Source of the DNA: Escherichia coli
GTDB lineage: Bacteria; Pseudomonadota; Gammaproteobacteria; Enterobacterales; Enterobacteriaceae
Direction: 5' to 3' (one strand)
NCBI RefSeq assembly: GCF_050920415.1
Contig: NZ_CP169309.1
Length of the DNA stretch: 64,000 bases
Shown here: positions 13,442 to 24,341 of the stretch, one piece after another
Position numbering within the stretch: position 1 is the stretch's first letter
Layout of the letters: each line of letters starts with the position of its first letter
Position numbers and translations under genes: made by a program
The notes under the pieces: model-generated
Seen by the model: only the letters and a program-made list of their open reading frames with translations
Databases searched by the model: none
What the model was told of the DNA's origin: nothing

Positions 13442-14097
13442 ACTTAACTCCACTGTCACACTTAACTCCCTTTCCCTTATTGGAATGCAGAGAAATAATC
13501 CTCGAGAATATGATTTATCATGCATATAAAATAAGAAAAAGGAAAATGAGAAAAATTAGGAAAACATAAAGATACGGGTTCTTATAAAAACAGAACCCAT
13601 TGCCAAGTAAAGAGTCATTTACCGCAGCATAATAATCCATAATGTTTTTGTTGCGAAAACAATCTAATCATAACTACCGCGAATACTCAATCATCCACAA
13701 AATGGATTAAATGTGCTTTTTAATAATTAATTTATATGTTTAATGCATTAATTCTTAACATTAATCGAACAATAATATTCACCAAATGAATATCAAAAAA
13801 TTAGCAAAATATATAATTCAATACAAATCATCAAGATAGGTTTTGTACGCGTGCATTTTATCCCCCTTTTCCTCGTTGATTAGATGCAAAAATTTATTCT
13901 GAAATATGTCAACCGATGAAAAGCGTCGGTGGTTAAGCAGAAATTAATATCGCTTGTTTTAACCACCGCAGCACAATTAGCTAATTTGACGAATGCAGAA
14001 CTCACTCTGGCGGAATGTTTTTATTGCGTCAGGGTTGACATCCGTTTTGGTATCCAGTAACTCTAAAAGCATATCGTATTCATCTGGAGCTGATTTA

Positions 14098-14184
14098 ATG
14101 ACTCACATCGTTCGCTTTATCGGTCTACTACTACTAAACGCATCTTCTTTGCGCGGTAGACGAGTGAGCGGCATTCAGCATTAA
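14098..14184 (+). CDS. leuL: leu operon leader peptide LeuL
   Basis: 28 codons [28 protein letters not shown] with four consecutive CTA Leu codons, directly upstream of the attenuator hairpin. Confidence 0.9.
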
Positions 14185-14212
14185 GCCAGCACGCAGTCAA
14201 ACAAAAAACCCG

Positions 14213-14243
14213 CGCCATTGCGCGGGTTTTTTTATGCCCGAAG
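14213..14243 (+). terminator. leu attenuator (rho-independent terminator)
   Basis: aaaaaacccgcgccattgcgcgggttttttt: GC stem plus T-tract between leuL and leuA. Confidence 0.85.
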
Positions 14244-18990: not shown

Positions 18991-19218
18991 AGAAAAAAGC
19001 CAGCAGATAATCACTGCTGGCGTGGCGATTAACACCAATACTCAGTCACACATGATGTCCGCAAATCAGTAGTCAGAATGACTCCCCTCCCACTGCATCA
19101 GCTCTTCAAGCATGGTTAATCGTTGTGGGACGCTTAACCAACGCAACCAGCACAACTTCGCTGTCGCGGTAAAATAGTGCTGATAAAACTGACGCATGGG
19201 GCACCTCCTTGCTTCATC
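18991..19218 (-). ncRNA. sgrS: Small RNA SgrS (glucose-phosphate stress sRNA)
   Basis: Minus strand begins GATGAAGCAAGGAGG, contains the SgrT ORF and the seed-like stretch GTGTGACTGAGTATTGGTGT, ends in hairpin ccagcagtgattatctgctgg plus U-run; ends approximate. Confidence 0.85.
19066..19197 (-). CDS. sgrT: SgrT small protein encoded within SgrS
   Basis: 43 codons MRQFYQHYFTATAKLCWLRWLSVPQRLTMLEELMQWEGSHSDY with AGGAGG SD upstream. Confidence 0.85.
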   Translation of the reverse strand: MRQFYQHYFTATAKLCWLRWLSVPQRLTMLEELMQWEGSHSDY

Positions 19219-19285: not shown

Positions 19286-20941
19286 ATGCCATCCGCTCGT
19301 CTGCAACAACAGTTCATCCGCCTGTGGCAATGCTGCGAGGGTAAATCGCAGGACACAACGCTCAACGAACTGGCAGCGTTATTGAGCTGCTCGCGTCGTC
19401 ATATGCGCACCCTGCTCAACACCATGCAGGATCGCGGCTGGCTGACGTGGGAAGCGGAAGTCGGGCGCGGTAAACGCTCGCGTCTGACATTCCTCTATAC
19501 CGGGCTGGCGCTTCAGCAACAGCGGGCGGAAGACCTGCTGGAGCAGGATCGTATCGACCAACTAGTGCAGTTGGTTGGCGACAAAGCGGCTGTGCGGCAA
19601 ATGCTGGTTTCTCATCTGGGCCGCAGCTTCCGCCAGGGGCGGCACATCCTGCGCGTGCTCTACTATCGTCCGTTGCGTAATCTGCTACCTGGCAGCGCAT
19701 TGCGCCGTTCTGAAACCCATATCGCCCGGCAAATCTTCAGTTCGCTAACGCGCATAAATGAGGAAAATGGGGAACTGGAAGCAGACATCGCCCACCACTG
19801 GCAGCAAATATCACCGCTTCACTGGCGCTTCTTTTTGCGTCCAGGAGTCCATTTTCATCATGGTCGTGAACTGGAAATGGACGATGTGATCGCCTCTTTA
19901 AAACGAATCAATACGCTGCCACTCTATTCACATATTGCTGAAATTGTGTCGCCGACACCCTGGACGTTAGATATCCATCTCACGCAACCAGACCGCTGGT
20001 TGCCGTTACTGTTGGGACAAGTTCCGGCGATGATCCTGCCACGAGAATGGGAAACCCTCAGTAACTTTGCCAGCCATCCCATCGGCACCGGTCCGTATGC
20101 GGTGATCCGCAACAGCACCAATCAACTGAAAATTCAGGCATTCGATGACTTCTTCGGTTACCGGGCATTAATCGACGAAGTTAACGTCTGGGTTCTGCCG
20201 GAAATTGCCGACGAGCCAGCCGGAGGGCTGATGCTAAAAGGTCCACAGGGCGAGGAAAAAGAGATTGAAAGTCGGCTGGAAGAAGGTTGCTACTATTTAC
20301 TGTTCGACAGCCGCACCCATCGTGGGGCGAATCAGCAAGTCAGGGACTGGGTAAGTTATGTGCTTTCTCCAACTAATCTGGTCTATTTCGCCGAGGAACA
20401 ATACCAGCAACTCTGGTTTCCAGCCTACGGGCTGTTGCCGCGCTGGCATCATGCCCACCCGGCGCAGTGCGAAAAACCTGCCGGGCTGGAAAGCCTCACC
20501 CTGACCTTTTATCAGGATCATATTGAGCATCGAGTGATTGCCGGGATCATGCAGCAGATTCTGGCAAGTTATCAGGTCACACTGAAAATCAAAGAGATCA
20601 GCTATGATCAGTGGCACGAAGGAGAGATCGAGAGCGATATCTGGCTTAACAGCGCCAACTTTACGCTGCCGCTGGATTTTTCGCTGTTCGCGCATTTGTG
20701 CGAAGTGCCGCTGCTACAACACTGTATTCCGATCGACTGGCAAGCCGACACCGCCCGCTGGCGCAATGGCGAAATGAATCTGGCGAACTGGTGCCAGCAA
20801 CTGGTCGCCAGTAAAGCAATGGTGCCACTTATCCACCACTGGCTGATCATTCAGGGGCAACGCAGTATGCGCGGTCTGCGTATGAACACCCTCGGCTGGT
20901 TCGATTTTAAATCAGCGTGGTTTGCGCCGCCGGATCCATGA
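19286..20941 (+). CDS. sgrR: Transcriptional regulator SgrR (HTH plus solute-binding-like domain)
   Basis: 551-aa protein from [19 protein letters not shown], divergent from sgrS. Confidence 0.93.
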
Positions 20942-20979
20942 TTGCTGGTTGATAACAAAATCACTACACTAACGCCGTT

Positions 20980-21075
20980 CTCAACGGGGTGCCACGCTGC
21001 CGCGTGCGCTGAGAAAATACCCGTCGAACCTGATCCGGATAACGCCGGCGAAGGGATTTGAGGCTCCTTCTCAAG
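20980..21075 (+). promoter_or_regulatory. TPP riboswitch (THI element) in the thiBPQ leader
   Basis: Contains ggggtgcc...ctgagaaaatacccgtcgaacctgatccggataacgccggcgaaggga, matching conserved THI-box features, directly upstream of thiB. Confidence 0.8.
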
Positions 21076-21104
21076 TCCTTTGCCACTCTTCTTTGAGGTG
21101 CAAA

Positions 21105-22088
21105 GTGTTAAAAAAATATCTTCCCCTGCTGTTGCTCTGTACAGCACCCGCTTTCGCTAAACCCGTTCTGACTGTTTATACCTACGACTCCTTCGCCGCC
21201 GACTGGGGGCCAGGTCCGGTGGTGAAAAAAGCCTTTGAAGCCGACTGTAATTGCGAACTGAAACTGGTGGCGCTGGAAGATGGCGTTTCGCTTCTCAACC
21301 GTCTGCGGATGGAAGGCAAAAACAGTAAAGCCGATGTGGTGCTGGGGCTGGATAACAATCTGTTAGATGCCGCCAGCAAAACCGGGCTGTTTGCTAAAAG
21401 CGGTGTGGCAGCGGATGCCGTTAACGTTCCCGGCGGCTGGAATAATGACACTTTCGTCCCGTTTGATTACGGCTATTTCGCCTTCGTCTATGACAAGAAC
21501 AAACTGAAAAATCCGCCGCAAAGCCTGAAAGAATTGGTTGAAAGCGATCAAAACTGGCGGGTGATTTATCAGGATCCGCGCACCAGCACGCCGGGGCTGG
21601 GTCTGCTGTTGTGGATGCAAAAAGTCTATGGCGATGACGCCCCACAAGCCTGGCAGAAACTGGCGAAGAAAACGGTCACGGTCACCAAAGGCTGGAGCGA
21701 AGCCTACGGCCTGTTTTTAAAAGGCGAAAGCGATCTGGTACTGAGTTACACCACTTCTCCGGCTTATCACATTCTCGAAGAGAAGAAAGATAACTACGCC
21801 GCCGCGAACTTCAGCGAAGGTCACTATTTGCAAGTGGAAGTCGCCGCCCGCACCGCTGCCAGTAAACAGCCGGAGCTGGCGCAAAAATTCCTCCAGTTTA
21901 TGGTTTCTCCGGCTTTTCAGAATGCGATCCCAACCGGCAACTGGATGTATCCGGTGGCAAACGTCACGCTGCCTGCCGGTTTTGAAAAATTGACCAAACC
22001 GGCAACCACGCTGGAGTTCACGCCAGCCGAGGTGGCGGCACAACGTCAGGCATGGATTAGCGAATGGCAACGCGCCGTCAGCCGTTAA
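21105..22088 (+). CDS. thiB: Thiamine ABC transporter periplasmic binding protein ThiB (TbpA)
   Basis: Track ORF begins with TTG at 21093; start placed at GTG 21105 giving (M)LKKYLPLLLLCTAPAFA signal peptide; start uncertain. Confidence 0.9.
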   Translation: MLKKYLPLLLLCTAPAFAKPVLTVYTYDSFAADWGPGPVVKKAFEADCNCELKLVALEDGVSLLNRLRMEGKNSKADVVLGLDNNLLDAASKTGLFAKSGVAADAVNVPGGWNNDTFVPFDYGYFAFVYDKNKLKNPPQSLKELVESDQNWRVIYQDPRTSTPGLGLLLWMQKVYGDDAPQAWQKLAKKTVTVTKGWSEAYGLFLKGESDLVLSYTTSPAYHILEEKKDNYAAANFSEGHYLQVEVAARTAASKQPELAQKFLQFMVSPAFQNAIPTGNWMYPVANVTLPAGFEKLTKPATTLEFTPAEVAAQRQAWISEWQRAVSR

Positions 22089-23659
22089 TTCCAGGCGTAA
22101 GCGCCGCTACGCTTGTGGTGGCGGTTGCACTGGCGGCATTTCTCGCCCTGTGGTGGAACGCGCCGCAGGGTGACTGGATGGCAATCTGGCAGGACAGCTA
22201 CCTGTGGCATGTGGTGCGCTTCTCCTTCTGGCAGGCGTTTCTCTCGGCGCTGCTCTCTGTCGTACCCGCGATATTCCTCGCCCGCGCGCTCTATCGCAGG
22301 CGCTTTCCGGGTCGGCTGGCGCTGTTGCGTCTGTGCGCAATGACCTTGATCCTCCCGGTGCTGGTTGCTGTTTTCGGCATTCTTAGCGTCTATGGTCGCC
22401 AGGGCTGGCTGGCATCACTCTGCCAATCGCTCGGTCTGGAGTGGACCTTTTCGCCCTACGGCCTGCAAGGTATTTTGCTGGCGCACGTATTTTTTAATCT
22501 GCCGATGGCGAGCCGCTTATTACTCCAGGCACTGGAAAACATTCCCGGCGAACAACGTCAGCTTGCCGCCCAGCTTGGGATGCGCGGCTGGCATTTTTTC
22601 CGCTTCGTCGAATGGCCGTGGTTACGGCGTCAAATCCCGCCGGTTGCCGCGCTTATCTTTATGCTCTGTTTCGCCAGCTTCGCCACCGTGCTATCGCTGG
22701 GCGGCGGTCCGCAGGCGACCACTATCGAGCTGGCAATCTATCAGGCGTTGAGTTACGACTACGATCCCGCCCGCGCGGCGATGCTGGCGCTGATCCAGAT
22801 GATATGTTGCCTTGGGCTGGTGCTGTTGAGTCAGCGACTAAGTAAAGCCATTGCGCCCGGCACCACGCTGCTGCAAGGCTGGCACGACCCGGACGACCGT
22901 CTGCATAGCCGCATTTGCGACACGGTGTTAATTGTGCTGGCGCTGCTGCTGTTGCTGCCACCGTTACTGGCGGTGATTGTCGATGGGGTAAATCGCCAGT
23001 TGCCAGAGGTGCTGGCACAACCGGTGCTGTGGCAGGCGCTGTGGACCTCGTTGCGTATTGCGCTGGCGGCAGGCGTATTGTGCGTGGTGCTGACCATGAT
23101 GCTGCTATGGAGCAGTCGCGAATTGCGGGCACGGCAAAAAATGCTGGCGGGCCAGGCGCTGGAGATGAGCGGAATGCTGATCCTCGCCATGCCGGGGATT
23201 GTGCTGGCAACGGGCTTCTTTTTACTGCTCAACAACACCATCGGCCTGCCACAATCTGCTGACGGCATCGTGATTTTCACCAATGCGTTAATGGCCATCC
23301 CTTATGCGCTGAAAGTGCTGGAAAACCCGATGCGCGATATCACTGCCCGCTACAGCATGCTATGTCAGTCGCTGGGCATTGAAGGCTGGTCACGCTTAAA
23401 AGTGGTGGAGCTGCGCGCCCTGAAACGTCCGCTGGCGCAGGCGCTGGCCTTTGCGTGTGTGCTGTCGATTGGTGATTTTGGCGTGGTGGCGTTGTTCGGT
23501 AACGATGATTTCCGTACCCTGCCGTTTTATCTCTACCAGCAAATTGGCTCCTATCGTAGCCAGGACGGCGCGGTGACCGCGTTAATTCTACTGCTGCTCT
23601 GTTTTCTGCTGTTTACCGTGATTGAAAAACTACCGGGGCGAAATGTTAAAACTGACTGA
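22064..23659 (+). CDS. thiP: Thiamine ABC transporter permease ThiP
   Basis: 531-aa polytopic membrane ORF with duplicated ABC permease domains; overlaps thiB end. Confidence 0.92.
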
Positions 23660-24341
23660 TATCACCTGGCTTTATCACCATTTGCCGATGCGTTTTAGCT
23701 TAACGGTGGAACGCGGCGAGCAGGTGGCGATCCTCGGGCCAAGCGGCGCGGGTAAAAGTACCCTGCTGAATTTGATCGCCGGTTTTCTGACGCCAGCCAG
23801 CGGTTCGCTGACTATCGAGGGTATTGATCACACCACTACGCCGCCGTCACGCCGTCCGGTATCGATGCTGTTTCAGGAGAACAACCTGTTCAGTCACCTG
23901 ACGGTCGCGCAGAACATCGGGCTGGGGCTTAATCCTGGATTGAAGCTGAACGCGGCGCAGCAGGAGAAAATGCATGCTATCGCCCGCCAGATGGGGATTG
24001 ATAATTTAATGGCGCGATTACCGGGCGAGCTTTCTGGCGGTCAGCGACAGCGCGTGGCGTTAGCGCGTTGTCTGGTGCGCGAACAGCCGATTTTATTGCT
24101 CGATGAACCGTTCTCTGCGCTCGATCCGGCGTTACGTCAGGAGATGCTGACGCTGGTGAGCACGAGCTGCCAGCAGCAAAAAATGACGCTATTGATGGTG
24201 TCGCACAGTGTGGAAGATGCGGCGCGGATCGCCACACGCTCGGTGGTGGTCACCGACGGGCGCATCGCCTGGCAGGGTAAGACTGAAGAATTGTTGAGCG
24301 GTAAGGCGAGTGCTTCGGCAATATTGGGGATTACGGGTTAG
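23643..24341 (+). CDS. thiQ: Thiamine ABC transporter ATP-binding protein ThiQ
   Basis: 232 aa from [13 protein letters not shown], Walker [10 protein letters not shown] and ABC signature LSGGQRQR. Confidence 0.94.

Follow-up and report, generated by a model that had tools for sequence, protein, structure and literature searches.

The thiB (tbpA) TPP riboswitch and the GTG start codon of thiB in an Escherichia coli genome

The riboswitch in the leader of thiB (tbpA) of Escherichia coli, together with the SroA RNA, has reportedly been the subject of work by Rodionov in 2002, Vogel in 2003 and Chauvier in 2021. At present, it serves as a model for the cotranscriptional control of translation. 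TPP binding and the response to it were established for the K-12 allele with the binding-site mutants G35C and G17C, reporter fusions and toeprints (PMC11487190, PMC10578472). TPP represses translational fusions of K-12 by 2.3-3.2-fold and transcriptional fusions by 1.6-3.9-fold (PMC11487190), and the reported repression of thiB is modest, about 2-4-fold. The stem that sequesters the ribosome-binding site is needed for repression, and a mutation that weakens it breaks the TPP response (Berman et al., 2023, PMC10578472). One segment of the linker has the same sequence as the 5' strand of P1 and pairs with the 3' strand in an antisequestering stem, and both the sequestering and the antisequestering stems have been tested by mutagenesis and SHAPE-Seq (PMC10578472). 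Pause sites of RNA polymerase (RNAP) have been reported at nucleotides 104, 117, and 136 of the leader, which is also known as the ~100-nt SroA RNA (PMC3511261).

Here, a leader of this kind is described from a window of 64,000 nucleotides of E. coli DNA, the window being the whole stretch that was analysed. The leader is almost certainly the known thiB/tbpA TPP riboswitch, with translational control by sequestration of the Shine-Dalgarno (SD) sequence and with the start of thiB at GTG 21105. This reading draws on the aptamer match, the annotation, the conservation of SD and GTG, the non-conservation of an upstream TTG, and three alternative helices with their conservation. The riboswitch and the GTG start are both already known and annotated, and there is nothing new in the finding. 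The invariant 12-mer of SD, spacer and GUG, the invariant linkers with two pairing partners, and the tolerated insertions in loops are consistent with the model and add nothing fundamental to it; the locus is a textbook riboswitch with a non-AUG start that can be recognised from sequence alone.

The aptamer and its genomic setting

The thiB leader lies in the 163-nt spacer between the stop codon of sgrR (20939-20941) and the thiB GTG at 21105. The features of its promoter and aptamer are the following.

20942..20970, + strand: putative sigma-70 promoter of thiBPQ, picked by eye (-35 TTGCTG at 20942-20947, 17-nt spacer, -10 TACACT at 20965-20970)
20975..20977, + strand: thiB transcription start (nt 1 of the published numbering is 20975 or 20977; Salmonella 5' RACE gives 20976)
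20975..21074, + strand: TPP riboswitch aptamer, or THI element (Rfam RF00059; RefSeq has the same coordinates)
20980-20984 with 21058-21062, + strand: P1, CUCAA with UUGAG (RF00059 alignment)
20985-20990 with 21017-21023, + strand: P2 of the TPP aptamer
20991-20995 with 21004-21009, + strand: P3 of the TPP aptamer
21009-21014, + strand: CUGAGA, the ligand-sensing motif of the pyrimidine-sensor arm
21029-21054, + strand: P4/P5 of the TPP aptamer

A THI-box-like element in the sgrR-thiB spacer had been proposed in an initial annotation, which placed it at 20980-21075. The sequence quoted there is present at 21009-21056, and the covariance-model search that the annotation had suggested as a check passes the gathering threshold of RF00059 at 20975-21074 on the + strand. 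This match is among the three above gathering score that Rfam 15 gives for the whole window; it scores 66.1 bits against a gathering score of 54.3 (E 9.3e-11) and covers model positions 1-105 of 105, not truncated. The aptamer is a three-way junction closed by P1, with P2/P3 and P4/P5 as its arms, and all pairs of the model are canonical in the window except G21032-A21051. The motif of the pyrophosphate-sensor arm, ACCUGAUC..GGAUAAUGCC..GCG.AGGGA, is matched by ACCUGAUCCGGAUAACGCCGGCGAAGGGA at 21028-21056, and both this segment and CUGAGA show little or no variation across 73 orthologous leaders. The sole unusual feature of the match is that it lacks the optional P3a hairpin, a part of the model known to vary within the TPP riboswitch family. 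Across 53 leaders, three pairs of P3 show compensatory changes, and the other aptamer helices never vary and are hence uninformative. The TPP model is above gathering score in 14 of the 20 orthologous loci that were tested. The element in the window is confirmed as a TPP riboswitch of the RF00059 class; a chance match to a THI box is ruled out by the E value of 9e-11 and by conservation at the orthologous position.

The aptamer lies 31 nt upstream of thiB on the same strand, and it is followed by three genes whose equivalog matches are all above cut-off.

21105..22088, + strand: thiB (tbpA), periplasmic thiamine/TPP-binding protein, 327 aa (NCBIfam TIGR01276, 2QRY, RefSeq)
22064-23659, + strand: thiP (NCBIfam equivalog NF006953, 1173 bits)
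23643-24341, + strand: thiQ (NCBIfam equivalog NF008039, 449 bits)

ThiB itself reaches 646.6 bits with the equivalog TIGR01276 (cut-off 317), and thiP and thiQ are the remainder of the operon under the thiB riboswitch. The RefSeq/PGAP annotation of three E. coli strains, one of them identical to the window over the 501 nt compared, has a "TPP riboswitch" feature that maps to 20975-21074 and a thiB CDS that maps to 21105-22088 (GTG, 984 nt, 327 aa).

The leader region was found in 5399 of 5426 complete E. coli genomes. Over the 501 nt from 20850 to 21350, the sequence shares 100% identity with E. coli MFDS1022581 and ~96% with K-12-type strains. The allele of the window is uncommon, an identity of at least 99% over 20850-21350 being reached in 12 of the 5399 genomes, most of which lie at 95-99%. 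Compared with K-12, the leader has only four substitutions: three at 20998-21000 in the apical loop of P3 (UGC in the window, GUA in K-12) and one at 21091 in the loop of the sequestering hairpin (C in the window, U in K-12), none of them at a paired or ligand-contacting position. Since these differences are so few and all fall in hairpin loops, the allele of the window probably behaves as the K-12 allele does. In the ThiB signal peptide, the window allele has Y5 and A16, where K-12 has C5 and V16.

By its sequence, 20942-20970 is a candidate for the thiBPQ promoter, with 8 of 12 consensus positions matched and a location 5-7 nt upstream of the published transcription start; a consensus scan of the region with a threshold of 9/12 returned no promoter, the candidate picked by eye scoring 8/12. 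In Salmonella, 5' RACE places a start common to SroA and tbpA 129 nt upstream of the tbpA GTG (PMC3511261). The numbering of PMC11487190 was aligned with nt 1 at window position 20977, upon which G35, G121, U130, and C144 match the letters of the window, and that of PMC10578472 fits nt 1 at 20975. In O157:H7-type genomes, an island with the T3SS effector gene espY2 stands between sgrR and the riboswitch (L003:497-1500); homology to the window resumes at 20940, so that ~37 nt upstream of the transcription start are kept. Because the island leaves the sequence from 20940 onward intact, it bounds the minimal thiB promoter. Two more curated RNAs are found in the window: SgrS at 18992-19218 on the - strand (228.9 bits), divergent from sgrR, and the leucine operon leader at 14084-14233 on the + strand (147.5 bits).

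Expression platform and mode of control

Downstream of the aptamer, two helices compete for the same linker, and one of them reaches into the ribosome-binding site.

21047-21062 with 21070-21084, + strand: anti-P1, or extended antisequestering stem, ON state (15 bp with one bulge, from complementarity)
21078-21105, + strand: SD-sequestering hairpin, OFF state (CUUUGC 21078-83 with GCAAAG 21100-05; CUC 21086-88 with GAG 21095-97)
21095..21099, + strand: Shine-Dalgarno GAGGU, with a 5-nt spacer to GUG, within the invariant AGGTGCAAAGTG
21105..21107, + strand: GTG start codon of thiB (RefSeq CDS; conserved in 83/83; K-12 mutant and toeprint)

The linker CUCAAGUCCUUUGCC (21070-84) is complementary to GGCGAAGGGAUUUGAG (21047-62). 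Three elements supply the bases of the antisequester: the P1 3' strand, a portion of P4/P5 and the 5' arm of the sequestering hairpin. Positions 21078-84 are common to both platform helices, and 21058-62 belong to P1 as well. The sequestering hairpin, with a predicted ΔG of -11.6 kcal/mol, is present in the minimum free energy (MFE) folds and extends over part of the SD and the spacer up to and including the first G of the start codon. With mutually exclusive helices and no terminator, the arrangement is that of an SD-sequestering expression platform.

Helix conservation was assessed on the 53 orthologous leaders that are free of insertions. The outer 6 bp of the sequestering hairpin are invariant in 53/53, and the share of cells that are paired comes to 97.4% for the OFF structure, 98.3% for the ON structure and 99.7% for the antisequester helix. 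As these helices are nearly invariant and only P3 covaries, covariation speaks neither for nor against them. Such extreme conservation, as seen in UCCUUUGCC, is in keeping with a need to pair with two different partners.

The MFE fold of the full-length leader (-48.3 kcal/mol) combines a short anti-P1 with the sequestering hairpin; a fold with the extended antisequester is 1.2 kcal/mol less stable. Equilibrium (partition-function) folding gives no switch, the SD being unpaired with a probability of ~0.36-0.38 whether P1 is enforced or forbidden or the antisequester is enforced. Since equilibrium folding does not separate ON from OFF, the model depends on kinetic, cotranscriptional folding. When a series of lengths is folded, transcripts of 110-117 nt (3' end at 21086-21093) have the extended antisequester as their MFE structure. 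The SD is about to emerge at this stage, with which the reported RNAP pause at nt 117 coincides. In this computational form, the result fits the published cotranscriptional (kinetic) control.

The segment 20975-21104 is almost certainly the 5' leader of thiBPQ (tbpA-thiP-thiQ), the operon of a thiamine/TPP ABC importer. Binding of TPP to the nascent aptamer would stabilise P1 (20980-84 with 21058-62). The 3' half of the aptamer then would not hold the linker, and CUUUGC at 21078-83 could pair with GCAAAG at 21100-05. The resulting hairpin is expected to bury the spacer together with part of the SD and the G at 21105 that opens the GUG, upon which 30S binding would fall. When TPP is absent, the linker would invade P1 and P4/P5 to form the 15-bp antisequester, leaving SD and GUG free for the synthesis of ThiB. 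The decision would be cotranscriptional, in that TPP would need to trap the aptamer ahead of P1 invasion by the linker, a kinetic step taken from the literature. A secondary drop in mRNA after translational repression has also been reported, with a disputed mechanism (Rho, RNase E); on this mRNA-level component and its cause, the groups behind PMC10578472 and PMC11487190 disagree.

That component raises the question of whether the riboswitch might act mainly on transcription or on the mRNA level, through intrinsic or Rho-dependent termination or RNase E decay, with translation secondary. The repression of transcriptional lacZ fusions by TPP (1.6-3.9-fold), which still amounts to 2.4-fold in the GUG mutant (PMC11487190), would agree with such a scheme, as would the ~100-nt SroA transcript that accumulates from the leader (PMC3511261) and the RNAP pauses at nt 104, 117, and 136. 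However, a scan for intrinsic terminators found no stem or terminator-like hairpin with a U-tract on the + strand, GUGUUAAAAAAA coming after the sequestering hairpin, and in vitro transcription with TPP yields full-length product only, without intrinsic termination (PMC10578472); on these two grounds, an intrinsic terminator is rejected. Bicyclomycin does not affect, let alone relieve, the repression of thiB by TPP (PMC10578472), and 30S toeprinting is directly reduced by TPP (PMC11487190). A primarily transcriptional mechanism is therefore unlikely, with only a small share of the probability, and a secondary effect on the mRNA level is plausible.

Besides its role in cis, the ~100-nt SroA might also be a small RNA that acts in trans on targets of its own. 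A stable short transcript is seen in both E. coli and Salmonella, and the deletion of sroA in Salmonella reduces viability under tigecycline and is complemented from a plasmid (PMC3511261). Against this, SroA has no validated target, the targets predicted by TargetRNA are weak (p about 0.006), altered expression of thiBPQ could account for the phenotypes, and nothing found in the window bears on a trans-acting SroA, which leaves this additional function improbable. The riboswitch is best read as a cis element that controls translation initiation of thiB.

The start codon of thiB

Two candidate starts stand at the beginning of the thiB frame, beside the SD and the GTG listed above.

21093..21095, + strand: TTG that opens the longest ORF, not the start codon; overlaps the SD region
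21105..21158, + strand: Sec signal peptide, (fM)LKKYLPLLLLCTAPAFA, 18 codons (from translation; predicted cleavage before K19)

The initial annotation had noted that the thiB ORF in its track opens with TTG at 21093 and had favoured an in-frame GTG at 21105, gated by the riboswitch, from which the conserved signal peptide is read. The longest ORF indeed begins at this TTG and has 331 aa, and the translation from the GTG, four codons further on, gives LKKYLPLLLLCTAPAFA and then KPV. The non-ATG start agrees with the RefSeq CDS, with conservation in 83/83 sequences and with mutagenesis and toeprinting of K-12 (PMC11487190), and its gating is borne out by the near-identical K-12 leader, in which TPP inhibits initiation at the GUG (PMC11487190). 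In K-12, the mutation U130A, which turns GUG into GAG (window 21106), makes the translational fusion "barely detectable" (Grondin et al., 2024, PMC11487190), and G121C in the SD (window 21097) lowers expression and abolishes regulation by TPP (PMC11487190). The 30S/tRNA-fMet toeprint is found at C144 (window 21120), +16 from the GUG, and TPP lowers it 2.2-fold (PMC11487190).

For the comparison with relatives, 80 orthologous loci were fetched from Enterobacteriaceae reference genomes, among them those of Escherichia, Citrobacter, Salmonella, Enterobacter, Klebsiella, Raoultella, Kosakonia, Leclercia, Buttiauxella, and Siccibacter; the usable sequences compared number 83, from ~25 genera. The 12-mer AGGTGCAAAGTG, which comprises SD, spacer and GTG, is identical in all 83 sequences, and the codons right after it vary at synonymous positions. 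At the position of TTG 21093, the same sequences have TTG (37), CTG (19), ATG (10), AAG (6), and CAG (3), and more rarely TAG (2), TAA (1), or, once each, TCG, CAA, AAA, GAA, and GTG. The codon is a non-start in 35/83 and a stop in three (L036, L060, L075). An in-frame ATG (ATGAGGTGCAAAGTG) takes the place of the TTG in L013, L007, L009, L032, L039, L045, L049, L068, L072, and L012; in these 10 species the ATG comes without an SD of its own, and automated annotation might pick it.

Initiation at TTG 21093, as the main or a minor start that would add MRCK to the signal peptide in a 331-aa precursor, has next to no probability: the longest ORF does begin with this in-frame codon, 48/83 sequences have a start-type codon (TTG, ATG, or GTG) in its place, and the N-terminus MRCKVLKK... 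would still resemble the n-region of a signal peptide, but TTG has no purine-rich SD upstream (CCACUCUUC, with pyrimidines preceding) and overlaps the SD of the GTG, its position varies as described whereas the GTG is invariant and used by RefSeq, no toeprint has been reported other than the one at +16 from the GUG, and the change of GUG to GAG abolishes the fusion despite an intact UUG (PMC11487190). The codons of the orthologs, the K-12 GUG mutant and the toeprint together rule it out. thiB starts at GTG 21105, and TTG 21093 is simply the first start-type codon of the open frame.

Cleavage of the signal peptide probably takes place before K19, the residue with which the crystallised construct of mature TbpA begins (PDB 2QRY; match to ThiB with E 2e-212). 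As the 18-residue signal peptide is expected to be cleaved, N-terminal proteomics is uninformative about the thiB start. The longest-ORF track overshoots the actual starts of other genes in the region as well, by seven codons each in sgrR (longest ORF from TTG 19265, RefSeq-equivalent ATG at 19286) and thiQ (longest ORF from TTG 23622, ATG at 23643 with MLKLTD...), compared with four in thiB.

The first base of the GUG, G21105, forms the closing C21078-G21105 pair of the sequestering helix. In an AUG variant, the hairpin would weaken from -11.6 to -9.0 kcal/mol, that is, by 2.6 kcal/mol. The start is GUG, and never AUG, in 83/83 sequences, and the closing pair is CG in 53/53, with neither partner varying. 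From this folding model, it is conceivable, as a tentative idea, that the identity of the start codon belongs to the switch, and that the weak non-AUG start is kept for reasons of RNA structure and not solely to hold ThiB low. The idea of a closing pair formed by the GUG is absent from the literature consulted on the thiB riboswitch.

Insertions in other genera and comparison with known riboswitches

In several genera, including Citrobacter, Klebsiella, and Raoultella, a palindromic repeat of ~130 nt sits inside the apical loop of P3 of the thiB aptamer. It was found at L006:1267-1395 and in L014, L027, L040, L051, L056, L061, and L068, being partial in some, and shorter forms are present in L064, L065, L077, L082, L011, and L017. 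The repeat folds as a long extension of P3 (MFE -60.7, z -4.4). It contains GTGACTGGGGTGAGCG and GTGAATCTCCGGGAGCAT, which resemble ERIC/IRU sequence as known from the ERIC primers. The window was searched for the ERIC-type repeat motif, and none was found there; a literature search for ERIC elements in riboswitches returned generic papers only. The "larger transcript" noted for Klebsiella (PMC3511261) matches the inserts in the P3 loop.

The inserts account for five of the six Rfam scores below threshold, and a truncated aptamer accounts for the sixth. L006, L024, L056, and L068 fall below the TPP gathering score with P3 insertions of ~120-200 nt, and L012 does so with a P3 insert and a second insert of ~125 nt in the loop of the sequestering hairpin. 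In this genome, Citrobacter sp. wls619, the second ERIC-like copy (L012:1358-1485, ~125 nt) is in reverse orientation and is flanked by the 5' arm of the sequestering stem (CCTTTGCCACC) and by the SD (ATGAGGTGCAAAGTG). The truncated aptamer is that of L070, a Pluralibacter MAG, in which the 5' two-thirds of the aptamer are replaced by unrelated DNA up to CGGCGAAGGGA (L070:1150-1415), with linker, SD and GTG intact; a real disruption and a misassembly are both possible.

The closest described system is the thiB riboswitch of K-12, which has the same sgrR-thiB locus, length, helices, and RefSeq annotation, and whose aptamer core, linker, SD, spacer, and GUG are identical to those of the window. 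It differs by the four loop substitutions and by the residues at positions 5 and 16 of the signal peptide, Y5/A16 being those of the window. According to the literature, the thiM riboswitch of E. coli is alike in having an RF00059 aptamer in which TPP stabilises P1 and an SD-sequestering helix forms, and in that effects on the mRNA level are secondary and depend on the coding sequence. In contrast to thiB, it has another expression-platform sequence and controls genes of biosynthesis and salvage, not of an importer. The thiC riboswitch of E. coli shares the aptamer class and regulatory pausing of RNAP near the start codon. Unlike the thiB riboswitch, for which the involvement of Rho is disputed, it is larger, contains a Rho-binding site within the riboswitch itself and exerts dual control (PMC11487190).
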